From Cenococcum geophilum (Eukaryota): a DNA stretch of 64,000 bases. Shown here one piece after another: positions 1,384 through 25,782 of the stretch. The notes under the pieces were generated by a model. That model made no database searches, was not told where the DNA came from, and worked only from the letters and a program-made list of their open reading frames with translations. The number at the start of each line of letters is the position of its first letter. Position 1 is the stretch's first letter. Where the stretch lies: the NCBI GenBank assembly GCA_050273025.1, contig CP158635.1, positions 13,144,001 through 13,208,000 on the forward strand, given 5' to 3'. The position numbers and the translations under genes were made by a program.

Positions 1384-4348
1384 GTAATAACAAGCTAAGA
1401 TAATATAGTATTAAGTAGGAGTAACTTATAAAGAAACAGACAAAGGACTAAGTTATATACTAAAGAAATACCATAAGTATAGTAAGAAACTATAGTTACT
1501 AGAAAGTAAGAAGCTATTAAAATATATAGTATAGAACTATAAGATAGAATTAAAACTAGAAATAAGTTTAAGGTTCTTTCTAATTTATAAGCTTACTAAA
1601 GAGGAAGGAAGAGCACTAAAAGAGTTTATCTAAGAGAACTTATAAAAGGGATATATTAAACCATTATAGTTATTAGCAGGTTATCCAGTACTATTCGTAC
1701 TAAAGAAAAACGGGAAACTTAGGCTATGTATTAACTATAGATAGTTAAACAGCATTACTAGAAAGGATAGGTATCCTTTACCCTTAATTAGCGAAATCTA
1801 AGATAGGATTAGCAATATATAAATCTTTACAAAGATAGATCTAAGATAGGCGTACTATTAGATTAGAATTAAGGAAGGCAATAAATAGAAGGCAGCTTTT
1901 AGGTTAAAGAAAGAACTATATAAACTATTAGTAATATAGTTTAGGCTTATAAACGTACTAGCAACGTTTTAAAAACGTATTAATAATATATTAAGAGAGC
2001 ACTTAGATGAATTTATTATGGTATACCTTAACAATATTATTATCTACTTAATAAGTAAGGAAAAGTATAAAGAATACGTTAAATAGGTCTTAAAGAGATT
2101 ATAAGAAGAATAGATGCTAGTAGCAATTAAGAAATGCAAATTCTTTACTAGGAAGATAGATTTTATTAGATTTATTATTAAACCAGGCCAACTTAGTATA
2201 GATTTAAAAAAGATTAAGGCTATAGTAAATTGGCAAGAACTAGAGAACGTTACGCAGCTAAAATCGTTCCTAGGGTTTTGCAATTACTGCAGAAGGTTTA
2301 TAGCTTAATAGTTAAAGGATATTAAGCTATTTATAAGGTTAATAAAGAAAGAAGAACCTTAGGTATAGGGAGAAGAGCAAAGGAAACTATTTAAGGAGGT
2401 TAAGGAGTTATTTACTTAAGACCTAATCCTTAAAATCTACTAACTAAAATTAAAGATAGTGGTCAAAATAGATGTATTAGACTTTATACTAGGGATATAC
2501 TTTCTATAAAAATATAAAGACGGATAGCACCTAGTAGCATACTATAGTTAAAAGATAATATTACCGGAACTAAACTATGACATCTATAACAAGGAGTTAT
2601 TAGATATAGTTACAGTACTTTAAGAATAAAGAGTATTCTTATAAGGTATAGAAAAACTATTTATAGTTAAAACAGATTATAAGAACCTAACGGGGTTTCT
2701 AATAATAAAAGAACTTAACTAAAAATAAGTTAGATAGATAGAAATGCTTATAAAATATTATTTTAAGATTTAGTATACTAAGGGTATAGATAATATATAA
2801 GCAGATACTCTAAGTAAAAAAGCTAAACTATAGAACAATAAAAAGCCATTAGGGGCTTTACTGCGAAAAGACATAGACGGATTAATTAGATATAATTATC
2901 TAAAGATTATAGTAATAAAAGAAATTAGCTAGACCTATAAATTACTAGAGAGTAACTAGTTATAAAAGATCTAAGATATATAGGCAGAGAATCCGAACTT
3001 AGAGCAGTACGAAAACTAAGAAGTAATATACGTGCCTAGAAATATCACAAGAGAGTTTATTAAGTTATTTTATAAGGGATTAACTTAAGGATATAATGGA
3101 GCTATAGGCTTAGTATTAAGACTCTAAGAGGAGTACATTATTAATGGAATTTAGGGATTAGCAAGATAAGTTATAAAGGAATATCTAAATTACTAAAGAA
3201 ATAAACTAATAAGATATAAGCTATATAGAGGGCTACAACCTATTAAAATACTAGAGAGACTATAGAAGGTTATATTATAGGACTTTATTGTAAAGTTGCT
3301 AAAATTAAGAGATCCTATTACTAAATAAGATTATAACGTAATCTTAGTAATAGTAAACAAGCTAATAAAGTAGGGATACTTTATAGCATACACAAAGGAA
3401 ATCTTAGTAGAAGATATCGCTAGAATCTATATTAAAGAAGTATTCGCAAGATATAAAGCACTAAGTAAAATTATATTAGATAGAGATTTAAGATTTATAG
3501 CAGTATTTTAGGAGGTATTTTTAGCGGAACAAAGAGTTTAAGTAGTAACTTCTACCGTATATTATCTATAGACAGACAGTTAAATAGAAAGATTAAATTA
3601 GATACTAGAGCAGTATCTAAGACACTATATTAATTATACATAGAATAATTAGGTATTATTATTACTAGTTATATAGTTCGCATATAATATAACACCTTAA
3701 GAAGGAATAGGAATATTACTATTTAAGGCGAATTACGGATATAAGCCAAAAACATTATTATTGCTATAATAAGTAAAGAAAATAAGTAGTAGAGCTAAGT
3801 AAAGAATAGAGATACTAATAAATCTTTATATAAACCTTACGGAAATAGTAAAGGTAGTATAGTAAAGAATAAAAAGGTACTATAACGCTAAGAGATCTAA
3901 GGGACTAGATTTTAAGGAGGGAGATAAAGTGTAGCTACTATATAAAATTTTTAAAAGTTAACAACTAAGTAAGAAGCTAAACTATATTAGGCTAGGACCT
4001 TTTAAAATTAAAAAGAGAATTTTATTAGTTATATTTAAGTTAAACCTACCAGCCAAAATTAAGATCTACCCTATATAGCATATTATAATGCTAGAGCCAG
4101 TATACGGGAATATTAAGCCACCGGTCTATAAAGCAGACACGTATAAAGGATAAGAAGAAGATAAATAGTAAGTTTTAAAGATTGTTAATTACAAGGACGT
4201 TAATAATAAAATATAGTATAAAGTAAAGTGGATAGGCTATAATAAGACTACCTGGGAACTACTAGAAAACTTAAAGAACGCTATAGAAAAGGTACAGGAG
4301 TATTAAAAGAGAAAAGGTTAGGCAATATTAATAAAGAAGAATTGCTAA
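1384..4348 (+). pseudogene. pol: RIP-inactivated Gypsy pol (RT, RNase H, integrase, chromodomain) of B1
   Basis: VYL(D)(D)IIIY at ~2021-2047; ORF-track fragment ..KSFLGFCNYCRRFIA; NYDIYDKELLxI at ~2575-2605; chromodomain ..YxVKWxGYxETTWEPLENLKNA at ~4215-4285. The 3' end is approximate. Confidence 0.92.
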
Positions 4349-4953
4349 AGAACGAACCACCTAAGGGGGATATAGGAAGAACGATTGCCGAATTACTTAG
4401 AGTTATTTCCTTCTCTACTAGAAGAGAATCTATTCTTTTATTGCTAAGTTCCTATAAGCCTTATTCTACAAGTTTCTACTCCTTAAAATAAACCTTTTTA
4501 TAAACTTTCTTAAGACGGATTAACTAAGCGGATATAGCCAGACGAGAATCTAGAGCGCGCTATTAAGCATTAGCTGCCTCTTTTTTAGCATTATAGAAAC
4601 GACAAAGTTTAAACAACGCTACTAAGAGCTTATTATCAAGCTTCGCAGTAGCTAATTAAACCCAAAACCCTAGTAGCAATTAATAAGGGAACTTAAAAAC
4701 TACTTAAAGTAATAGGGCGCGTATACTTAGCGTTAAAAACTAAGTAAATATTATAGGACAATTATATATTCGCTTTAGTACACTCTAAGTAAGAGGATAG
4801 TTGCTAAGATAAAGGACTTACTAATACAATATAGACTAACCCCTTTTTCGCATAACAAGAATATAGAGAGAGCATTATTTCACTAAGAGATAATATTATA
4901 GCAATGGTATAAGACTAATAAGCTATAGAAGAGGATAAAGGAGCCTTAGGTAT
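4250..4953 (-). pseudogene. Antisense accessory ORF of Gypsy B1: Zn(II)2Cys6-like cluster + coiled coil, one 55-bp intron (4724-4670); RIP-inactivated
   Basis: De-RIPed: MPKAPSSSS..GEIMLSP-C-SR-C-AKKGLV-C-IVLASPSSRQPSS-C-SE-C-TKANMRSS-C-DVRSVSDAEW|FWVQSATAKLDDELSAALSELRRFHDAEKEAADAQQRALDSRL.. The six Cys positions are TAT/TAC/TGT. The stop position is uncertain. Confidence 0.72.
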
Positions 4954-5061
4954 TATAAGTAAGGATATTAACCAAATTAATTAGACGGATATTATACCTC
5001 TAGTAAATAACCTAGAGATACTAGGTATCTTTAAGGACAAAGATAAAGAGGAGGGAGATAG

Positions 5062-5463
5062 TATTACGGACGCTTTAAGTACAATACTATAACTACTAGG
5101 AGAGGAGTTGGAAGAAGCTAGTTAGTTAATATAAGCACAGTCTAGAATAGAGCCGATAAAACTATATAATAAGGAATAGTAATTAGGTTATATAATATAA
5201 TCTATAAGATCTACTATAGAGTAAATAGAGTAGATAGAGCAGATAGAGTAACAACTTTCTTAGGAGTATAGTTATATATTTAAGGACCCTTAGTCCCTAC
5301 CTAGATAGTTCCTTTCCTTATAGTAATTCTTAGAATATAATTAGAGTTAATTTATTAGGCAACCACTCTACTAGTTATTATTACGTTGTTGACTATTCAC
5401 GCACCTATAAACCTAGCCTATTAATAGAACCCACCGTAGTTCCTGCTACAAGGTTCCGTTACA
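5062..5463 (+). repeat. Family B 3' LTR
   Basis: T(g>a)TTACGGACGCT...GTTCCGTTACA, directly preceded by the PPT. Confidence 0.9.
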
Positions 5464-8400
5464 CTCTTAGGTAAATAACTCCTTAAGTTTCTTAAATAAC
5501 TTCCCTTACTTATCTCTCTATACCTATAGTTCCTCTTTCTTTATAAGCCTAGTAAACGGTTTAATATTCTTTAACTATTATGCTATAAACCTTCTATAGT
5601 AGTTATAAAATCCTAAAAATAACCTTAACTATATTACATTCTCTAGTTTCTACTAACTCACCATAGCTTTAATCTTCTTTAGGTCTATACTAATATAACC
5701 TAGTTTAATAATAAATCCTACAAAATTGGTCTTCCTTATAAAGAACTCATATTTCTTAATTGCTACTAGTATCTATTCTTTTTATAGTCTCTTTAAGACC
5801 TATTTAATATATTCTTTATATTCTTCCTTTATTATTCAGTAGATAATAATATTATCAAAATATACTATAATAAATTTATTAAAGTATTCTCCTAACATAC
5901 TGTTAATTCTCTTTTAAAATATTACTAGTATATTTATTAACCTAAATTATATTACTAATAGTTTATATAGTCCTTCTCTTAACCTAAAGGCTGCCTTTTA
6001 TTTATTGCCTTCCTTAATTCTAATCTAATAGTACACCCATCTTAGATCTATCTTTATAAACATTTGCGCATTACCTATCCGATCCTAAATTTCACTAATT
6101 AGGGGTAAAGGATACCTATCCTTTTAAGTAATGCTATTTAACTATCTATAGTTAATATATAACCTAAGTTTCCCATTCTTCTTTAGTATAAATAATACTA
6201 GATAACCTACTAATAACTGTAATGGTTTAATGTATCCCTTTTATAAGTTTTCTTAGACAAACTCCTTAAGTGCTCTTAACTTCTCTTAGGTAAGTTTATA
6301 GGTTAAAAAGAACCTTAGACTTATTCCTAGTTCTAACTCTATCTTATAGTCCTATACTATATAATCTACTAGCTTTTTACTTTCTGGGCTCTATAGTTTC
6401 TTACTATACTTATAGTATCTCTTTAGTATATAACTTAAGCTTCGCTTAGTTTCTTTATATATCGCTCCAATTTAGTACTATACTAACTTAGTTTGCTATC
6501 GCATTTTACGTTATTAAGTATCCCTAATATTAACCTAACCTATAATCTAATTAATTTTTGGGTTATATTTCTATAACTAAGGCACTCCTAATACTGCCTC
6601 GTCCTGTCCTAACGGTAGGATATTAAAGGACATCTTAATTTATCTTCCTTTAATAGTTATCTAAATAGGTCCTATTTTAAGACTAATAATCCCTCCTCTA
6701 TAAGCTATTAGATCCCCTAAAATTATAACTAATAGGTAAGATTACTCCTTCTATCTATAAGGTAATCCTATTCTTTTAATTACTACTAGTAAGATATAGT
6801 TCCGCGTTGCTCTACTATCTATTAGTGCTTTAATCTGCTAATCTTACTAATTAACTTATAAATTTAGGTACTATCCTTAAATTCCTTTAAGGGTCTAAGG
6901 CTCTACTACTAGCTCCCTCTAGTCCTATAGGCCTCTACTTTTCCTAACTATTGGCTGCTTAATCCTTATATACTTGGCTCATTCTTTAGCTAATACTTAG
7001 TTTGCTTTTTATCTTTAATATACTATAGATATATATTTTCTAGGTATTCTTACCACTATTATCCGTCTAAGCATTCTTTTATAAGGAATCTTCCTAGTTA
7101 AAGTATTAAGTCTTTTATTTCTTAAACTTTTGCTAGATGCCAGCTGTAACGTTTCCCGCCCTAACGTCGCCATTCGGCCAAAAAGACACGGAGTGCTTGC
7201 GATATTGTTCGCAAGCGCGGCGGGATCTAATATATATACTCTTACACCAGCTGTGTATATACTTAGCATTTCTATACTATTGCTTATTTAGCGCCCAATA
7301 TATCCTTATAGGGTACTTCCGATTCTTTTCTTTTAAATTCTTATATATCTTATATATACTATCTACGCATGCAATCTATAATAGCATATAGTACGCTAGG
7401 TGTTTTAGGTTAACTCTTAACTTATCTTTATTTTTAAGTTTAAACCTTTATCGTATTAATCTAAACATTATAACTTTATTTATAGGTACTAAGATACGTC
7501 TCTCGCTTTTCTAGTCCTCTAATCGTTTTTTTAGATCCTTTAACGTTATAATTAAGGCTTCTTTAATATAATTTATTGCCTTCTCTGTAATTAGGTAGTC
7601 CTAGATAACTTATTTATCTAACTATATATAGAAATCTTCCTACTTATTATTGTGTTGCTATTTATAACACTTTTAGTACAGTTACTAGAGTGTATATAGT
7701 TTGTCCGTAAGGAAGTATCTTCTTATTACTATATTATAATAGCCCTTTATATGTTATTCTTTGAACCTAATAGGGATCCCTAAATCCTCTTTATTTTCTA
7801 GTTTAGTAAGCTATTTAGCTCTTAATATGCCTGCCCTAGGCCTATTAATAATTCTTTATATAGGTATTCTGTCCCTTATACAACCTAATATGCTAGATCT
7901 TTTATCTAGTTTCTGTTCTTACTATACGAGAATTCTTTATCTAAACTCCGTTATAGTTTTTTTTAGTTTTCGTTATGTAAGTAAATTCTTAAAGTCTTCT
8001 TACTTCTTAATCTTTATTTGTTTAATAGCCCTTATTTATATTTAAAAGTCTTAGTTCTATAGGATTCTTAATCTTAAGCTTGCTTCTATCTTAAGCTTAG
8101 CTCTTACCTTAGTTTAACTAGGCTTCTACAGTGTTCTTATCTCGTCTTAAGAGTCTTAAATCTCACTCATCTTATCTTAAGAGTTTTGTGTTTTTTAGAA
8201 ACTTTGTCCTAAGCTCATTTATATATTACTAAACTAAGCCGTTACTCTGCTCTATTGGTTATTATCTATTATAGGTTCTTAAGCTTGCCTTATTTTATCT
8301 TAAGAATCTTAATTATCTCTTATCTTACCTTAAGATTCTTAAGCCTTTAGCCTTTTGCCTTTATTAAGTGCTGAAGTAGTTTACTGTCCTACCCCTCTTG

Positions 8401-10323
8401 CGTCTTATAAAGCGATAGACATTGTATCTAATAGGGTCTTATTCCCTACTAATATTCCCTATTTTATAGTGGAATTATTTTTTACCTCTTTTATAATATC
8501 TCTAAGGTCTATATACTCCTAGTAAGCTGCCTTTATTACCTTATTATTACGGAATGCTTCGTCTATATTAAATTTATTATCCTTAATATCCGATTTATAA
8601 GATAGTTTATTAGTTCCTCTAAACTCTAATAATTTTAGCTCCTATAGCCAATAGCTTACGCTATACTTAGCGTCCTTATAAATTCGGCATGCATTATTAT
8701 AATAAAACGTAAAACTTTTAATTAAATATTCTTTTATTCCTTATAACACATTATTATCCCTCTATACGTATATGTCGTCCGCTAGTCTTATTCCTTTTAC
8801 TATATAGTAACTCTAACCACTTTTATAGTCTTTAACGTAGTAACCTTATTTTCCGCAATTTATATAAGCTCCTTCTTTAAACTATTTTTCTTACTATAGA
8901 GTCCGCCTAAATATCTTGTACTATTATAATCCCTAGTTTGGCCTCTACTCCTTAAACCTTTAATTACTTAATCCTTATCCTTTAGGTTTCTATAGTTATT
9001 TATTTTATTTCTTATTTTCTCTAGTACCACTTAGGTCTATTGGCTTTGCGCTATACTATAGTTTTTAACTTTAACTTTATCGTTGCGTGCCCTACGCCTT
9101 ATATAACTACAGAACTCTATTCTAACCCTTTTTAGTCTACTCTCTTTAGTAGATCCTATTATTAATCTTAATTACTTAATTAATTAAATCCCTAAGAGTA
9201 TCCGTATCTTCTATTAGGATAATTATATCCTAGACTTTTGCTTTAAGTCCCTGTTTATATTATGCCATAAGCGCTTTATTATTCTATTTAACCTATATTG
9301 CTAATATTTAAAATTATATTGTATATTTGATTGCTAAAGTCCTCTATACTAGGTTTTAATGCTTTCTTTTTACTATAGTAGTTACCTCTAAGTCTCTAAA
9401 TATCTGCGTTAAGCATTTTATAAACCCGCTTTAACTTAAGAATATATACCATATCTTCTAATTAGTAGTTATTACACTATGCTCCTATACCTCCGTAATG
9501 TAAGATTTAAACCGCTTAAGTGCCCTTCCTATTAAGAATAATCCTGCGTAAGCGACTTAATCTATAGGAGTTCCTAGTTTAACTCCTTTATATATAACCT
9601 TAAAGTGCATTTACGTAAGAAATCCCTTAAGTTTTAACTTCTTCCCTAAAAATCGTTTAATTAAGGGTAACTTAACCTTAGCTGCTCTAATCCCGTTAAT
9701 CCTTTCTTTAAGTATTCTATTATTATCTATTAATTAATTAACTATTTCCTATAGCTGTCTAATAGTAACTAGTTGCGAGTTAGTATCTACTATACTAGTG
9801 TTATTACCTAATCCTAAGGTAGTTGCTACTATGGACGCCGTCGTAGCTACTACTTTTAGTAGCATATTGTTTGACTTCTTTTATTATAACCTTGGTAGTA
9901 AATATATAATAAAGCCTTATAGGAAATACTACGGTGAACTTATTAATAGGCTAAGTATATAGGTATAGAATAGTCAACAACGTAAATATAATTAGTAGAG
10001 TGTTTGCCTAATAAATTAACTCTAATTATATTCTAAGATTTACTATAAAGAGAAGAACTATCTAAGTAGGGACTGTAGTCCTTTAAATATATAACCGTAC
10101 TCCTAAGAAATCCTCCTTATACGTAAGGTACGTCTCTTATATAAGGTATATAAGTTTCTCTTGTTCCTCTCGTTTAATACGTAGCATATTATATAACCTT
10201 AGTTACTATTCCTCGTTATATAGTTCTACCAGCTCTATCTTAGACTGTGCCTTAATTAACTAACTAGCTGCTTCCGACTCCTCTCCTAGTAGTTGTAACA
10301 TTGTACTTAAAGCGTCTGTAACA
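5464..10323 (-). mobile_element. Gypsy family B, copy B2 (5' part): 5' LTR 9905-10323, long gag (ATG ~9865), protease, RT truncated at 5464 by B1
   Basis: CCHC knuckle EGACINCGKQGHYAKDC at ~8826-8875; protease IKALIDSGATRNYI at ~6800-6835; RT 5464-6450 is the reverse complement of 1450-2360. Confidence 0.9.
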
Positions 10324-15650: not shown

Positions 15651-18600
15651 TGTTACGGAACCCCACCGTAGGGGCCTCCATAAGAGAACCCCGTGCTCTT
15701 ACGTATACCTCGCGTACAGCTTATATTAGCTACGCGTAGGTATATTACCTCCTTACGCCCTCGACCCTTACGATCGATCGCGTAACGTCTTATAGACTCC
15801 TCGAATACATACGCTCTGTAGCTACTACCCTTGCCCTATAATATTACGTTGCGCCTTTTTTACTACTAATACTTAGCCTATAACTAATTCTACGTCTTTA
15901 TAATACCGTAGGCGCTGCTAGAAGCAGCGTATCTATAAGTTACTCTACTTTATACTTCTAAGAAACCCATAATAGTAAGATAATATTTCTTACTAGCTAC
16001 TATATTAAACCTAAAGAACAATCTAATACCTATACTTAACCTACACCGTCAATTAACCCTAGGAGAATTTAACTTATTAGCCCTAGCCTTAACCCTTAAG
16101 GGGAAGCCTAGTGGCTTAAAATATTATAATAACCTTAATAAGGTAGACATTAATAATATCTTATCCTTTATTAACTATATAACTATAAAAAAGTAAGTGG
16201 AAGAGCTACTACCTATTAAAATTAAAATATAAGACGCTAAGACGTTTATAAAAAAGGTAGTATAAGAACCCGATAAATACTACCGCCTTTTATAGAACTA
16301 CTACCTAAAGCTTATATAAGCTAAAATGCGTACTGCCTAAGATCGCGATATTATTTAAGACCTGTAAGCTTATAAGGCGCTCACTAATAATATACGCTAA
16401 AAGATTAAAGATAACCTCTACGTGTCTAAACGCGACGTCTAACGGTTAAAGAAGGCTAAGATTATACTTATTACTACGGTTACTAAAAAAGACGGCATAA
16501 TTAAATACCTATAATCTTAGCTTAATAAGTATATTTATAATAACGCTAGATACCTCTTTACTATATATAACGCTACCTAAGTCTTTACGCCCCTAATAAC
16601 TTTACCTACTTAACGCTTAACAGAGGGTTAGCGCTAAGCAGCTTTACCTAATAGGAACCCCTACTAAAGCAGCGATAATAAAAGCTATAACGATTAAACC
16701 TAAGCTGCTACCGTAGGGTCTAATACACGTTACTTTATCCCTTAGTTTTTTAGGGAGACTATAAGGAATATAGCCACTAAAAGATATAAATTTACAAAAA
16801 ACTAACCTAGAGCGCCTGCCTTTTTCCTACGGAAGATACTAAGATTAGTTATATTATTGGGCGAATAAAGGGTATACTATTTAATAGACTCTTTACTTAA
16901 TGGAAGACTAATGGCCCCTAGAAGTAGTAGTCTTATTAAGAAGTCCTTAATAATCTTAACCTAATATACCGTAACTATAACCTATTAGCCACTAGCTAAG
17001 CTAAACTATATACCCTAAAGATAAACCCTATTAAATTATTTAACAAATTCTATATTAAATTCTAGGAATATACTAAAGCTATTACCTAAGACAATACCGA
17101 AGACTAAGAGGACCTCCTTAAAAAAGTTACTTATTACCTTAGTTACGCAGCCGCCAGCTATAACTATAACGACATTTATAATATAGTAGCAGCTCTATAG
17201 AAGATTAAATAACAACTAAATTAGATTACTACTACTAACCTTTACCTAAAGACCTCTCTGTAGAAGCCTTCTAGGCCTACTAAACCTATATATACTAAGC
17301 CACTAATACCTACTACCTTAAGTGCTACCGGAGCCAATATTAATTTCTCTATACTAACCTTTTTATAAAAACTCTTAAATAGAGAGCGCAAGCTACTCCA
17401 AAAACTAGGATACTGCTATAAATGCTAATAAGAAGGCTACTATTGCGATAACCTAAACTGCCTAATAGCTAGGTTTAGTAGCCGCCGCCTAATACCTAGC
17501 CTAATACCCTAAATACTAAATACGTTACTATATACCACTACTATATAAAATAAAGACGTAGTAATAGCGGTAGAGTTAAATATGGAAGCGGAAAACGCCA
17601 AGTCCTAGCTCTAAGTTATGGGTTAGGACGCCCTAATAACGGAGGAATCTATATATTGGCTTACTTAATAGATAACTTAGTAAAGATAAATAGACGGAAA
17701 TAAATAGTTTTACCTATAATAGGAACTACTGCTAAAAAATAATATAAAAGCCGTTCTATAGTTAATTATAGAGTTACTAATAAATTTATAGATGCCTAAT
17801 TTATGCGTACTTATAACCTACCTACCTTACCCCTTACTAAAGCCCGCGCCCTATAACTTACTAATAGTAGTTATACTGTATAGAAGATTACCTATATAGT
17901 ATAACTTTACCTAGATATAAAAGGCATTAGGAAAAACTCTAGGCCTATATTATACCACTTACCAACTACCCTATTATCCTTAGAATAAACTAGCTTAAAT
18001 AATATAACTTTACTATTAACTAGAAAAAGAGAGAAGTAACCTTTAATTCTAAATACTATAGAGAGACTTGCCTAGGGTATAGCCTAGCCGCCTTTATTTA
18101 CTCCCTAGGATATTAACCCACAGAACCCCTTATTACCCTACCTATAACTAACTACTACTATATAAGTGCCTCGGCCTTCTACTATATAGTATATAGAAAA
18201 GGCTAAACCGTCGCTATAGCTTCCTAATTATAACTATATAAGCTTAATAAAGAATAGGACTACGTCCTCTATAGTAATAGGATAGACATAGTTAACCTTT
18301 TAGAAGATAACGCCCCTATAAAACCCTATAGACCTCTACCTCTAGACCCTAAGAAGTTTATAAAGCTTAAAAAAGGACTTACTAATAAAGAACTCCGTAA
18401 GCTCCTCCCTAAAAGGTACTATAACTTTACTAACATATGCTTATAAAAGGGCGTAGATATACTCCCCCTACATCGACCTAATAACTATACTATTAATATT
18501 AAATAAGGAAAAATGCTACCTTATAAGAGACCCTACTTAATATTAAAAGACGAACTTCTAGTTATAAAAAAGTATATTAACGAGCATCTTAATAAAGGAT

Positions 18601-21600
18601 TTATTCGTCCTAGTATATTACTAGTAGCCGCCCCTATTCTTCTTGCTAAGAAACTAAAAGGAGGTATTTAATTCTACGTTAACTATAGAGGACTTAACGC
18701 TATTACGATTAAAAACTAATACCCAGTACCGCTTATATATAAGACCCTTAAGCGGCTTAGTTAAGCTAAAATCTATATTAAGCTTAATATTATTGCCGCC
18801 TTTAACTATTTTTAAATACGGGAAGGTAACGAATAGAAAACCATATTTATATCGCGCTTTAGGCAATTTAAATATACTATTATGCCCTTTAGCGTATATA
18901 ACAGCCTAAGCACCTTCTAAAGCTATATTAATAATGCCTTATAGGACTACCTTAACGACTTCTACTCTATGTACCTAGATAATATACTTATTTATAGTAA
19001 TAACCCTTTTAAGTATACTAAACATATTTAAAAGGTCCTATAGCGCCTTCGGGACGTAGGACTTTATATTAATTTTAAAAAAATATGAATTCTTAGTTAT
19101 AGAAGTAAAATACCTTAAACTAATTATTACTACTAAGGGTGTCTGTATAGACCCCAAGAAAGTACGTATAATTACTAAATAGTAAGCCCCTAACTATATT
19201 AAGGACGTATAAGCCTTCCTTAGTTTCGCTAACTTTTATTAGAAATTTATATATAACTTCTTAAGCGTAGTAGTACTACTTATAGCAATAATGTAAATAA
19301 AGGGCCTTTTTATAAAAGAAAGAAAAACATACCTATGCTTTATCTAAACGCCTAAATATAAGAAGGCATTCTAAGACCTTAAAAATGTCTTTACTAAAGC
19401 ACCTATCCTAGCTTACTTTATACTAGGACGACAACTCTATCTTAAAACTAACTCCTTAAACTACGTTAACATAGGCGTCCTTTTCTAGATGGGCAACAAC
19501 GGTCCTCTTTACTTAGTTATATTCTACTCGTCTAAGCTTATACTATAAAAGTATAACTATAAGATCTATAATAAAAAACTCCTTATAATTATATAAGCGT
19601 TTAAAGAATTCTAACTAGAACTCTCCTTAGTAGAGCCCAACTAGCTAACTAAAGTTTTTACGGACCATTATAACCTTAAGTACTTTATAACTATAAAGTA
19701 GCTAAATTAATACTAGGTATATTAAAACGAGTTCGTCTTTAGTTTTAACTTTAAAATTATATATAGACTAGGAGTATAAGGTACTAAACCTAATAGCCTA
19801 ATACGCCGCTTATGTTACGGACGCTTTAAGTAAAGGACTACGACTACTTAGAGAGGAGTCGGAGGAAGTTAGTTAGTTGATTACGGCACGGTCCAGGATG
19901 GAACCCGTGGAACTATGTGACAAAGGGTAGTAACCGAGGTCATATAATGAGCTCTATAAGCTCTGTAAGCTCTATAAGCTTTATAAGGAACGTCCCGCGT
20001 ACCTCGCGTACCTTATATACCTCACGTACCTCACGTAGCGAAGGGATTTCTTAGGAGTATGGTTGTGTATTTAAAGGACCACAGTCCTTACCCAGATAGT
20101 TCTCTCTTTGTAGTAATTCTCAGAATACAATTGGAGTTAATCCGTTAGGCAACCACTCCACCAGTTGTACTTGTTACTATTATATTATTGACTCGTTCGT
20201 ATATCTACACACCTAGCCCATTAACGCGTCCATCGTAGTATTTCCTACAAGGCGTTCGTTACAGCTTATAAGACCTTCCTTAGTCTAAAGATAACCCCTA
20301 TAATTAGTTCTAATAATAGATAATCTTAAAAGGATAAAATTTGGCCCTAGGTATACTACCTATAATAGAGCTAACTATACCTTAGCTTTATACTATAAAA
20401 CTAAAGTTACCTCCTAAAATTAATAAGCTTATTACTACGGCATATAACACCTCTATTAACCTATTACTATATTAACTTATCGCCGTAAAGACCGCTAGCG
20501 CCTATATACTGCCTACTAACCTTTAAAACTTAGGCCAGATTAATATAGTAGCCTTAAAAGTAAAAGAGAATAGGCCGCCTATTTATCCCTAACTTAGAAA
20601 ATCTATAACGGCAATTAATCTAAATGGCCTACGACCTCTAATTAAGCGGCTACCTAGGTAGAGGAGGAACCTATAAGCTCCTTAGCCGATACTACTTCTA
20701 GCCAAAAATAATAGACTTAGTTAAACGCTTTATAGGCGTCTATTACGGTTATAAGCGCGCTAAGGCCTTTAATATAAAGTACTAAAGACTACTATACCCT
20801 TTACTAGTACCTATATAATAATAGGTAGATATTGCTATAGATTTTGTTATTAACCTACCACCCTATAAACAATATAGCCGTACCTATAAGAACATCTTTA
20901 TAATAATATACTAATTTATAAAAAAGCGCCACTACGTCCTAATTAAAGGCGTAGCCGTTAGCGACGTTACTAATACCTTCCTCTACGAAGTTTACTAACT
21001 ATATAGGTTACCTAACTCGATTATATCCAACTAAGGTATATAATTTAACTCTAATATATAGAGATAAATCTATTAATACCTTAGCATCTTCGTTAAGATA
21101 TCTATATCCTTCTATTATAAAACTACTAGGTAACTAGAAAACGCTAATACTAATATAAAAGCGTACCTATAATAGGTAGTTGCCTATAGTTAAGATAACT
21201 AGGTAGATTACCTCCTACTAGGTAAATTTGTAGCGAATAACTACGTCTTAACCACTATAGGACTTACCTCGTTCTTTACAAATAAGGGTTATTACCCCTA
21301 ATCCGGCATAGAGCCACTAGAACCTATTAATAAGAAACTACTATATAGAAAACGCCTTAAGATACTACTTGCTAACTAGCATATAGACTATATAAAAAAT
21401 CTACTTAACTACTATAAGGGAGAAATGGCCTAGGCTTAAGCAAAGTAGGCCTACTTCGCCGACTATTATAGAACGCTACTACCAGAGATGCGTGTTAGCG
21501 ACTAGGTATAGCTAAATATACGTAATATCTCTACGCAGAGGCCTATAAAGTTACTTAATTATAAGAACTTTAGCCCCTATTTAATTAAATAAGTTATTAA

Positions 21601-22494
21601 TAAGGGAGCTATATATAAGCTAAAACTTCTACTTACCCTAGCCACCTATAGGATATAGCCTATATTTTACCTATAGCTATTATACCTCTATTAGGCTAAC
21701 CCCTTACTAGGGTAGATATAGCCTAAACCCCTACTAGTACTAATCCGAGATAAGAACAAAGATAAGAACTATAAGGAGTGGACCATTAAACGAATTATTA
21801 ACTCTGAATACTTTAGTAAAGGTAGAGGACAACGGCTCTACTACAGAGCTATATATATATAGGATTTGATATAAATTAGCTAGAATAGTAACTATAGAAA
21901 GACTTTAAAAATGCAAAGGATCTAATTAGTGATTTTTATTACGCAAACCTATAGAAACCGGGCTTAAGCAGAGATTTTATACCTAATCCTCTATAGGAGC
22001 CCTTATAGAGTTAAACCGTTATATATTACCACGTAAAGGCAAATTGCCGTTAGATTACTATTAGATTACGGTAAAGTGCAATTATATAACCAGAATATCG
22101 TTAAGATGTCTAGGAACTTTAACTGGCGGTTAAAGTTATCTAATTAGTTAGATTCTTAGATGCTAAGCCTTATTATATAACGTTGTTTTAAGCCTTTAGC
22201 AATACCCCCCTTTCTTCTTTTCTATACCTTAAGTGTCCCTTTTATATATATATAGTAACCACAGCGTCGCCGGAGCTTCGCCTTTATAGGAGGGGGGGTA
22301 GTATTACGGAACCCTACTATAGGGGCCTTTATAGGAGAACCCTATACTCTTATATACACCTCGCGTATAGCTTATATTAGCTACACGTAGGTATATCACC
22401 TCCTTACGCCCTTAACCCTTATAATTAATCGTGTAATATCTTATAGACTCCTTAAATATATACGCTCTATAGCTACTGCCCTTACCCTATAATA
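15651..22494 (+). mobile_element. Full-length RIPed Gypsy chromovirus family D, copy D1 (LTRs 15651-15843 and 22302-22494; TSD ATAGG)
   Basis: Two 193-bp LTRs; TSD ATAGG at 15646-15650 and 22495-22499; PPT ggagggggggtag; RT YLD(D)ILIYS at ~18972; chromodomain EWT(V)ERI..YRAxYxG at ~21780-21960. Confidence 0.95.
19813..20263 (+). repeat. Solo LTR of family B inserted in D1 pol (TSD GCTTA)
   Basis: TGTTACGG...CGTTACA flanked by GCTTA at 19808-19812 and 20264-20268. Absent from D2 and less RIPed than its host. Confidence 0.95.
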
Positions 22495-22561: not shown

Positions 22562-24698
22562 ATAATAATTTATTGCTTAACGTCTAATTTAGATCCTTAT
22601 TAGGCCTATATAGACTACTCCTTATTTATATATAGGGAGAAAACTCTACTTAAGAAAACCCCGTAATCTATCTCCCCGCCGTTTAAAACTTATCTACTTA
22701 GCGCCTATAAGGCGCCTGCGAGTTACCTATAGTACTTTACTACCTTACTTTTTAACCTTTTTAGGAACTACTACTGCCGTAATAAGCCTATAGACGCGCT
22801 AGTATTATAAACTTTACTTTACCACTATAGAGTTATTAGGGGGCGCCTATTACTCGCCCCTTTACCTTTTATTACTATTTCCCTTATAATTTAGAACTAG
22901 TTTAGCACACTTTAGCTAATAAGCCACTAGGTAACCGCCTTAAGACCTTTTTATATTAAGAGTAGCGTATTATAGTTCTCTATGCCAGCTACTAAGAGTA
23001 TTACTTCTTAGTTAGAGCGTAAGGGGTATACAGCTCTGGGCACGACCAGCTTCACCCCCCCCCCCTCTAGCAAAAATATTATTTCGCTACAGTACGCGGG
23101 CTCGCCAAATCGCCACCAACTGTACATAGTAATTGTAGCGAAGCTGTATACTTCGCTGCAAGAACTTTGCTTCTGGGGGACTTGCGATCAACCTTCCTCC
23201 GTAGTGTCGTGATCTTTGTCAAATATCGTAAAGCTTCCACCCATACGATATTGCTAAATTTCATCGACAATTGCAGAGACAGCGTTGTATTCGCGTTTTG
23301 GCGGCCGCAACAGAGGCGTCGTTAAGGGGGAGAAGAGGAAGCGTACGTCTTCAATTTGGTTCTCCCGGCCAACTAAGGCGATTCTTCTGGCCAACTAAGG
23401 TGATTCTCCAGGGCAACCAAAAAGGTCCTTGCGTGCAGACACATGCGTTCGCTACAATTACTATATACAGTTGGTGGCGATTTGGCGAGCCCGCGTACCG
23501 TAGCGAAATAATATTTTTGCTAGAGGGGGGGGAGGTGAAGCTAGTCGTGCCTAGAGCTGTAATAGTATTACGTATTTTAGTGTCTGTCTTAGCTAGCTAT
23601 ATTTATATCTTAGGCTACCTACTAAGATACCTACTTAGTAGAGCCAGTCTTTTAGTCCTATTATTCCTATTCTTAAGAGTATTACTATTATATTTTCTAC
23701 CTTTATTAAGCCTTCTTAGAGCCTTTAAGTATTTACCCCCTATAGCATTAACTATGCTATAGCTTAGGTTCCTCTTATCTAAGTTAACCTCTATACCTTT
23801 AACCTTTATATACCTCTCCATTATTAGTCTAACTAGTACTATATTGCGGTAGATAGTTTCCTAGCGTTCTTTTATACTTTACTTTAACTCCTTTTTCTTT
23901 CTTGCTATTATCTTTACTAGCCTTTTACGCGTCTCCTATTCTCCTTTATATAGGCCTAGGCCTTAAAGCGGCACTATTCTTCTTTTACTTTTTTTTTTAC
24001 CTATTTCTCTAATATATCTTCCCTACTTTAGGGTTATTAGCTTATTCTCCTATATAGCACCCTAGGGTCCCTTTATAGTTTATTTAGGCATATCCTAATA
24101 TACTTTATAATATTAGAGTTATGTTTCTTTTACGCCCTTTATATTGCAGCGGCTTTAATATATAGTTATAGGGGGGGAATATTAACTTCCTTCTTAAGCA
24201 GTACTGTAGCCATTCGCTTATACCCACCTATTATACTTTAAAGGCAGGCTATTTAGACCTTTTAGAGTAGTTTAAGGAGCGATTTAGGGGGGCCTTTCTC
24301 GGTTTCTTTAATAGCCTAAATACTAGACCTATATATTATGGTTAGCTAGATAACTACTATATATAATAGGCGTAACCTCTAAAAGTATAGGCCCTATATA
24401 GAATTAACGATCCTAGATACTGTAATATACTATACTTAGCTCTTATAGGCCACTTACGCCGTATATACGCTCTACTAGAGCTTACTATTTACCTATACTT
24501 TTAATACCCTTAGGCCCTAAACTAGTTAACCCCTAAAGCCTTAGATATTAATTATATACTAAAGATTTACAGTAGGTAGTTATATAGTAGAGTTTAGTAT
24601 ACTTGCTTATCTAGGCCTCTACCCTAGTTTTCTAGTAACTTTTCCTTTTTAAGGCCTAAGGGCCTAGGGCTTTTTATAAGTAATTAGCTGTCACTACC
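22562..24698 (-). mobile_element. Tad1-like non-LTR retrotransposon (LINE), 3' part of ORF2 and 3' UTR, RIPed; 5' side cut by A2
   Basis: De-RIPed minus strand: ..LEKVQIACLRSVTGGYKRTATAVLEKEVNIPPLQLHIE..; ..LLRTGxIGLKDWL..; zinc finger PRCxCGWPRQTPKHVILLC; ..GLKAVTQWLI..VLDQFQ. The 3' end reads caataaattattata near 22562. Confidence 0.82.
23031..23559. mobile_element. MITE / non-autonomous Tc1-mariner-type element, 112-bp TIRs, TA TSD
   Basis: TIRs 23031-23142 and 23448-23559 (CAGCTCTGGGCACGACCAGCTTCACC..). TA at 23029-30 and 23560-61. Removing the element restores the LINE reading frame. Confidence 0.93.
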
Positions 24699-25782
24699 TA
24701 TAATGGGACTAGCCCAGTTATAGTAGGAATGTCTCGGTGAAACACTCGATAGATAAATTCTAACGCTTTAACCGAATTCTGCTAGATTAATTAAATTCTA
24801 CCGAAGTCCGTTAAAGACCGCGTGCGTATATACGCACGCATTGACCACCAAGCCCCTAACTATTTAATTATATAATTCTCTTGTTATTCCATTCTCTTCT
24901 TTACGCAACGTCTTGTTTTTAGCGAGAGCTATATACCCTTAGATTTAGATAGAATTATATTATTCCCTTAAATCTTCCTTAAAGTCTTTCCGCGCCCTTA
25001 TATTACGTTACGTTAATACTAATACCCTTAAAATGGCAAACGAACTCAAATCCGCCACAATAACTATTATAACCCTAGTTAGGGAATAAATGACTATAAT
25101 ATAATAGTCCTTTATAGATGCCTTAGCCTAGTAACAAACTATACTAAAAGCTTAGCATTAATAATTAATTAAAGCAATATATAAAGAACTCTATAACGTT
25201 AAAGTACTCGCGTTAGAGACCCTAATAGCAACACCTATAAATAAAATTAAAATAACTATATGCGAACCTAACCTATTAAATATAAACCCCAAACTAGTAA
25301 TAGCAGCTTAACCTATACCTATAATAAACCTAATACCTACTATAAAATCTAAAAAGCTCCCTAACCCCCCAATGTTTAATAGAAATTAAAATAACCTATA
25401 TCCCTTTATAACTAAGCTCCGTCTTAAACTTTTAATAAACTATAACCGATACCCTACTAAAGCTAGTAAGATTAGCTATGGAATATCTTATTTAAGTAAA
25501 AACGCTGCATAATCTATGGACCTATTCTTTTATAATAGCACCTTTATTAATTTTAAAATCTTTATCTTTCTACTAGAATAAATATATAATAACGCTAGCC
25601 ATAAATATACAGCTGTTATTAAATTTAAAAACCTATAATAACGGAACCGAGACTTTGCTAGCTTCTTTTCGGAATTTTTAGGCCTTATTAGTAAATTAGA
25701 TTAGAATAAAGCCGCTAGAGTTACTACTCTCTATTAAGCTATTTTAGATAAAATTAAAGTATAGTTAGTAGGTAGAGAACTA
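24699..25782 (+). mobile_element. Gypsy family A, copy A2: 5' LTR 24699-25002 + truncated gag (ATG 25033)
   Basis: Reverse-complement homolog of ~285-1383; ends abruptly at ..GGTAGAGAACTA. Confidence 0.88.

Follow-up and report, generated by a model that had tools for sequence, protein, structure and literature searches.

What is encoded on the minus strand behind the pol gene of a heavily mutated fungal retrotransposon? The question is raised by a 64,000-nucleotide stretch of DNA from Cenococcum geophilum (contig CP158635.1, positions 13,144,001 to 13,208,000), to which we refer as the window. Its left end is occupied by a plus-strand element, B1, a Ty3/gypsy chromovirus in which a gap of about 740 bases separates pol from the polypurine tract (PPT) that precedes the 3' long terminal repeat (LTR). 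An earlier note, made from the letters of the sequence, had proposed that this gap holds a spliced antisense gene for a Gal4-type zinc-cluster protein, disfigured by repeat-induced point mutation (RIP). Our analysis bears out the gene and does not bear out the family assignment. With a probability of about 0.85, the minus strand at 4281-4953 holds a genuine accessory gene that belongs to a family of fungal Ty3/gypsy chromoviruses, here in a copy killed by RIP; the gene is placed antisense in the gap and interrupted by a single 55-nt GT-AG intron.

Coding signal beneath the mutations

Further copies of the gene were sought by scanning metagenome contigs with a RIP-degenerate pattern of 27 letters taken from inside the cysteine motif. 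The scan yielded 23 loci with 26 additional copies, all of them RIP-mutated (G+C fraction 0.26-0.39), which are 73-82% identical to the window and align with it unbroken from pol across to the LTR. Position and orientation of the gene are the same in all 26. At one locus (L006, ~1890-2497), an insertion of ~600 bp lies within exon 1, between the equivalents of window positions 4818 and 4827.

Because RIP makes only transitions, alignment columns were scored as purine or pyrimidine, the transversions counted in this way being blind to RIP. The numbers of transversion-polymorphic columns in the three codon phases are 2, 6 and 26 over 4725-4983 and 22, 51 and 21 over 4286-4669; pol gives 22, 15 and 44, and the LTR a flat 17, 14 and 19. 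The switch of codon phase falls between ~4664 and ~4710, where the earlier note had proposed the intron. The 27 columns of the search pattern cannot vary by transversion, which reduces variation to the same extent in every codon phase without creating periodicity. Indels tell the same story: every one is a multiple of three in exon 2 (34/34) and in exon 1 (8/8), versus 12 of 127 in the LTR. Since periodicity is compatible with a frame on either strand, a strand-specific test was needed, and we asked whether third-position transversions fall in four-fold codon boxes. The pol control gave an odds ratio of 5.7 in the true frame and 0.65 in the antisense frame; for exon 1 the values were 5.15 on the minus strand (p 0.004) and 1.1 on the plus strand. 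Taken together, these patterns establish a coding sequence on which purifying selection acted in the active masters of the family.

Database searches argue for the same strand and frames. A profile of exon 1 made from the natural copies retrieved 1473 short open reading frames (ORFs), an exhaustive search with an exon-2 profile retrieved 94 representatives in the same strand and frame, and a profile of un-mutated relatives added 79 database proteins. A profile built from database proteins only (A3) matches 4652-4296 of the window with an E value of 1.2e-27. The segment is thus far from peculiar to the window copy, and the gene occurs in several subfamilies only 40-60% identical. Nine of the database proteins (P0121, P0138, P0248, P0249, P0273 and P0284-P0287) read unbroken through the junction ...AEW|S(R/Q)V(Q/V)..., joining the two minus frames at 4725|4669 through the split Trp codon; in P0176, a member of another subfamily, the point at which these parts are joined is slightly shifted. 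The intron is read through in frame by P0251 and P0283, which belong to the same 90%-identity cluster as the intron-less P0284-P0287. P0251 lies on a contig of 120,785 nt and P0284-P0287 on contigs of 984-1629 nt; the contigs behind all nine intron-less proteins measure 0.9-1.6 kb. From the residues of P0251 at the boundary it follows that GT stands right after the split T and AG before the GG. As judged from these proteins, the splice junction is at 4725|4669, and the segment that they omit is exactly the one that had been predicted.

The nucleotides of the copies agree with this structure. At the donor, 4 of 27 copies still have the G at 4724 and all 27 the T at 4723; at the acceptor, A is found at 4671 in 27/27 and G at 4670 in 23/27. 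The interior of the intron has neither indels nor codon periodicity. A natural GT at 4726, which would make an intron of 57 nt, was considered as the donor and rejected: it keeps the frame, yet the phases differ, and the natural proteins use 4724. The segment 4724-4670 alone suits the data, and there was no need for any other pairing of donor and acceptor. An intron in antisense orientation would survive retrotransposition, because the sense genomic RNA would not present it as an intron.

The same comparison restores the cysteines. Between the chromodomain and the PPT, just where the earlier note had located them, the minus-strand codons at 4863, 4854, 4833, 4791, 4782 and 4755 read Y, Y, Y, Y, C and Y, with the spacing x2, x6, x13, x2, x8. 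Other copies keep a G in the middle of each of these codons (4862, 12/26; 4853, 7/26; 4832, 9/26; 4790, 3/27; 4781, 21/27; 4754, 10/27), and two natural copies are free of stops over the 88 codons examined in the module region. Among 123 database proteins the six positions hold C or Y only, save for one L at the sixth, and the un-mutated P0273 and P0248 have Cys at all six. The proposal that RIP turned TGY into TAY and the GT donor into AT in the window copy is confirmed by these retained Gs. One residue had been misread: to judge from the database proteins, Arg and not Cys stood third in the motif. In three database ORFs of the exon-1 family (P0054, P0061 and P0070), the six-Cys module occurs twice in tandem within one open frame.

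In its spliced form the gene has ~205 codons, and its 3' end overlaps that of pol by ~40 nt; the end of the reading frame, formerly set at 4250, has to be moved to the TAG at 4283-4281, which is TAG in 25 of 26 copies. The start codon at 4953-4951 is ATG in 6 of 25 copies, and an in-frame TAA lies upstream of it (4983-4981) in 22 of 25. The window copy itself is dead: it has ATA for a start, AT for a donor and ten stops in its spliced read-through, and four Cys of the module are now Tyr. Its RIP indices (TpA/ApT 1.70; (CpA+TpG)/(ApC+GpT) 0.49) resemble those of the whole window (1.72 and 0.41). One stop called for separate consideration, a TAA at 4658-4656 that is present in 26/26 copies at a place where the natural proteins have Gln. 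As an argument for the death of the splice model it was rejected: 5 of the 32 pol codons that are mostly stops are likewise stops in every copy, which indicates that RIP saturation does occur. The TAA is, then, what saturating RIP has made of a Gln codon.

Transcription, and the case against the gene

If the gene was expressed, its messenger probably began close to the LTR. The N-terminal read-through of spliced P0248 can be aligned with the opposite strand of the PPT region (~5053-4978) and then continues for 7 more residues; because it extends past the PPT complement, the mRNA would reach the edge of the LTR. On balance we favor a start of antisense transcription within the 3' LTR or at its edge, which fits the promoter on that side suggested by the earlier note. 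The stretch from the antisense start to the LTR (4954-5061) is the most strongly conserved outside pol, with zero indels and shared transversions at only four columns (4954, 4963, 4981 and 5023) among 26 sequences. It contains the PPT and would double as an antisense 5' leader or promoter-proximal region. An RNA sequencing run (X21) offered 49 partial reads from a relative, of which 1 was 95-99%, 16 were 90-95% and 32 were less than 90% alike. Those within 3726-4544 all run in one direction and those in the LTR mostly in the other, a pattern that, if the library were of the deoxyuridine triphosphate (dUTP) kind, would place antisense RNA across exon 2 and further on.

A number of observations weigh against the gene and against its proposed product. 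The spacing of Y and C codons is, taken alone, no more than chance would give in this Tyr-rich, RIP-mutated window: Tyr makes up 7.6% and Cys 1.3% of the six-frame codons, the exact spacing is found twice (one of the two being the low-complexity run at 53503-53393), and the flexible spacing of the PROSITE type occurs 11 times. In the four-fold-site test the strands were not separated for exon 2, and its strand is assigned from the database proteins and from the junction in them. The short contigs that carry intron-less proteins are in all likelihood derived from mRNA, as deduced from the proteins. No reads of run X21 fall in 4545-5048. The 23 loci were picked by the motif pattern, and the share of family copies that carry the gene cannot be inferred from them. 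On the side of the protein, no family was assigned above threshold by Pfam to the 129 natural exon-1-bearing sequences, the helix passed a heptad test no better than shuffled sequences did, and AlphaFold2 gave the Cys module a predicted local distance difference test (pLDDT) score below 50 in both of its metal-free models (P0273 and P0248). Lastly, the contigs of three DNA sequencing runs portray a hugely repeated family whose copies differ chiefly by transitions (437 of 507 variant places in run X1), and the depth over 4545-4922 drops to ~0.3-15% of that over pol and LTR, so that most family copies would be without this stretch or more than 20% diverged in it. The depth drop was at one time taken as an argument against the gene; it was withdrawn, the stretch being the fastest-evolving one and rich in indels.

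Features of the antisense gene and of its carrier element B1 (positions in the window)
Feature	Position	Strand	Basis or remarks
Exon 1 (76 codons + 1 base)	4725..4953	-	transversion phase, four-fold-site test, in-frame indels
Six-cysteine module C-x2-C-x6-C-x13-C-x2-C-x8-C	4753..4863	-	two stop codons within it in the window copy
Intron, 55 nt	4724..4670	-	donor GT changed to AT here; acceptor AG intact; TGG (Trp) codon split T|GG
Exon 2 (2 bases + 128 codons)	4284..4669	-	long predicted helix, variable linker, conserved C-terminal motif
Conserved C-terminal motif, ~30 residues	4284..4373	-	hydrophobic and acidic, ends ...TP(V/I)PF; predicted disordered
Stop codon TAG	4281..4283	-	inside the last pol codons
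Chromodomain and end of pol, B1	4172..4321	+	Ty3/gypsy chromovirus, one frame with RIP stops; Pfam scan
Polypurine tract (PPT)	5045..5058	+	directly 5' of the 3' LTR; read off the sequence
3' LTR of B1	5062..5463	+	LTR copies elsewhere in the window; locus matches begin at 5062/5064

Nature of the predicted protein

The gene would encode a protein of ~205 residues made up of a short N-terminal helix, the six-Cys module, a helix of ~100 residues, a variable linker and a hydrophobic-acidic C-terminal motif. The long helix is predicted by AlphaFold2 with pLDDT above 94, at residues 58-151 in P0273 and 77-199 in P0248, and the short N-terminal helix is modelled in both; the C-terminus is reached by the P0248 model only, at low confidence. 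The heptad-rich helix of the earlier note thus keeps its helix and loses its heptads. The six-Cys module probably binds zinc. We propose tentatively that the protein may bind zinc, be directed to nucleic acids and regulate or assist the expression or replication of its own element, in the manner of a retroviral antisense accessory factor. Membership in the Gal4-type Zn(II)2Cys6 family or in the DUF3716 family is not established. Pfam found no match in the read-throughs of the window copy, and a search of a protein atlas returned only unnamed Ascomycota clusters at scores of 0.85 or less, plus a lead to DUF3716.

The protein could, first, be a true but divergent Gal4-type factor that binds the element's LTR, its binuclear cluster being joined to a coiled coil for dimerisation and to an activation motif at the C-terminus. 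This was the identification made by the earlier note, and several traits speak for it: the six invariant Cys are laid out as C-x2-C-x6-C ... C-x2-C-x8-C, in two CxxC...C triads; a long helix follows the module, as it follows the zinc cluster in Gal4 and PPR1; and the host lineage is fungal, the Zn2Cys6 family being abundant in fungi. The Zn_clus family (PF00172) is also the most recurrent Pfam match, with 7 of the 129 exon-1-bearing sequences at E of 1 or less, and the best match to a zinc protein in PDB is PPR1 (1pyi_A), itself a Zn2Cys6 protein, in which PSCKRCAKLEVPCV aligns with PSCSRCAKEGLVCV, a weak local similarity to the second PPR1 triad. All of these matches stay under threshold, however. 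The best Zn_clus match has 14.5 bits against a cut-off of 21, and all matches fall in the second half of the profile, at positions 17-38; scores for the un-mutated P0273 and P0248 are 13.6 and 8.1 bits, and E is 1.5 for P0176 and 4 for P0248. The PPR1 matches (E 0.56 and 4.4) are not significant, the exon-1 profile has no PDB match, and none of our searches gave a significant PDB match. The first triad, with one Lys only between Cys 2 and Cys 3, is without the several basic residues that the Zn2Cys6 family has there. The PROSITE spacing for Zn(II)2Cys6 is C-x2-C-x6-C-x(5-12)-C-x2-C-x(6-8)-C, and the x13 loop between the triads is one residue longer than this range allows. The fold is not predicted, the module being left unfolded by AlphaFold2. 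Finally, a longer protein of 266-2000 residues that might represent a full-length host factor as parent was absent from the 8000 candidates scored, which is weak evidence. We regard a Gal4-type identity as unlikely.

Less probable still is a Cys module of the DUF3716 type (PF12511), in which case the protein would be an adaptor that does not bind DNA, or an RNA-binding factor. For P0086 there is a DUF3716 match (E 0.028) that spans profile positions 4-48 of 59 and takes in both CxxC groups, and the first Pfam-bearing atlas cluster for residues 1-80 of P0273 has DUF3716 in 28% of its members. Against this, P0086 is the only one of the 129 sequences to match, at 14.8 bits under a cut-off of 22; the un-mutated P0273 and P0248 have no match; and the atlas score of 0.78, like any below 0.9, counts as a lead only. 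A further lead comes from Zymoseptoria tritici, whose class II transposon REP9 carries DUF3716 proteins as passengers (PMC8232023). Like the protein predicted here, these are small cysteine-rich proteins that ride fungal transposons, and the resemblance consists of two weak signals; the transposon class is a different one.

There is little to recommend the idea that the element picked up the segment from a host gene by transduction and carries it as a passenger of no use. LTR elements do capture host fragments, and the protein has no recognised retroelement domain. Yet the selection signature equals or exceeds that of pol, the in-frame indels built up while the masters evolved, the gene is shared by those subfamilies of 40-60% identity, no longer host parent was found among the candidates scored, and position and orientation are fixed in 26/26 copies.

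The weakest proposal, that the segment is spacer that does not code, or else holds an ORF on the sense strand (an extension of pol or an env-like ORF3), with a Cys pattern produced by RIP and chance, can draw on the chance rate of the Y/C pattern and on plus-strand frames that are fairly open in an over-corrected de-RIP consensus, among them an 81-codon ORF at 4246-4491; it is already refuted for exon 1 and is next to impossible overall, given the periodicity, the in-frame indels, the strand test, the hundreds of minus-frame database ORFs and the nine proteins that join two minus frames. The plus-strand frame at 4246-4491 lies opposite exon 2 and shares its third codon positions; most likely it is a by-product of the codon structure of the antisense gene.

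The carrier element and its relatives

B1 lies in AT-rich surroundings (G+C ~0.26-0.45 per kb). In its pol read-through, with stops written as X, Pfam recognises RVT_1 (8.6e-14), RT_RNaseH (1.3e-13), SH3_Tf2-1 (7e-07) and Chromo (1.7e-04), the last two lying under their curated cut-offs (29.7 bits versus 30, and 21.9 versus 25.1); the integrase core gave no Pfam match in this read-through at E of 0.01 or less. The Chromo match covers residues 1391-1437 of the pol frame and puts the end of the chromodomain near 4312, and the pol stop, TAG at 4319-4321, is present in 22 of 26 copies. B1 is accordingly a Ty3/gypsy chromovirus, and its lack of frameshifts is what one would expect of an element altered by RIP.

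Its family, B, has further representatives in the window, with LTR copies at 10321-9915 and 19815-20263. A second copy on the minus strand (5465-10321), of which 10321-9915 is the 5' LTR, abuts the 3' LTR of B1 tail to tail. Its interior ends at the B1-equivalent 2421, 5465-6499 matching 1387-2421 in inverted orientation at 82%, and it is without the antisense gene. The copy at 19815-20263 is a solo LTR, 67-71% alike, which sits inside another element and splits it into halves (15651-19813 and 20264-22481) that match 40315-36208 and 36213-33983. A third fragment corresponds to the 5' part of B1 upstream of the reverse transcriptase, 283-1398 being repeated as an inverted copy at 24684-25782 with 86% identity. 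Four profiles detected no second copy of the antisense gene among the other elements of the window, and the segment itself has no repeat there.

The location of the gene recalls extra genes described for other LTR elements. The brtn gene of Boty was reportedly described by Zhao et al. in 2011 (Virology 417:248). According to four reports, it is an extra antisense gene between pol and the 3' LTR of Boty-like chromoviruses in Botrytis and Sclerotinia (PMC8365987, PMC7264820, PMC4227169, PMC5987419). The likeness to the B1 gene extends to the fungal chromovirus carrier, to the place between pol and 3' LTR and to the orientation antisense to gag-pol; host lineage and element family differ, and the comparison is by description of layout only. 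One Monilinia transcript is matched both by BRTN protein and by a truncated, chromodomain-bearing Pol, which fits the overlapping 3' ends of gene and pol in B1. None of the database matches to the exon-1 or un-mutated-relative profiles is named BRTN. Plants offer a second set, the antisense ORFs called aORF-3R, which likewise lie between pol and the 3' LTR: Grande gene23, RIRE2, the TRP28 ORFs of Retand, and PvRetro13. These are said to be conserved within families, some with a promoter of their own, and are suspected of a nuclear or DNA-binding role, their function being unknown (PMC7264820, PMC11963269). Place and orientation are the same as in B1; the carriers belong to plant lineages other than chromoviruses, the proteins are much longer and have other domains (TRP28, SMC-like), and no sequence relation was seen. 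The earlier verdict that the B1 gene stands outside the gag-pol canon was therefore overstated. By its layout it is one of the additional antisense ORFs that lie between pol and the 3' LTR, for which brtn of Boty is the fungal example. Our literature search, which did not extend to the primary brtn paper, found no description of a six-Cys module in the antisense gene of a fungal retrotransposon.

A functional analogy, and no more than that, may be drawn with HBZ of human T-cell leukemia virus type 1 (HTLV-1). HBZ has a bZIP domain and is made from a spliced mRNA. Its antisense promoter lies in the 3' LTR (PMC7264820). An antisense spliced mRNA from the 3' LTR, a small regulator and a long helix would be common to both in outline; HBZ is otherwise unrelated, being the bZIP protein of a human retrovirus and without a Cys module.

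The antisense extra genes of LTR retrotransposons have barely been studied, and none has a known function. For the one in B1, selection, in-frame indels, a conserved intron and natural spliced forms establish its reality, and the identification of P0248 and P0273 as un-mutated, full-length relatives makes direct tests possible. The approach may perhaps be useful elsewhere, in that periodicity, in-frame indels and four-fold-site tests recover a coding signal from fully RIP-mutated DNA. It is tempting to speculate, improbable as this must be considered, that the gene encodes a miniature Gal4-like activator of the element itself, with a divergent binuclear cluster, a dimerising helix and an acidic-hydrophobic activation motif, which would be translated from a spliced antisense message that begins in the 3' LTR and would bind the element's own LTRs, switching the element on or countering its silencing; with brtn it would then form one old and widespread family of accessory genes of fungal chromoviruses. 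Were this true, fungi would possess a counterpart of the retroviral antisense regulators, and a self-encoded regulator would change the reading of transposon bursts and genome defence in fungi. Fungal repeat annotation that expects only gag-pol misses a recurrent gene.

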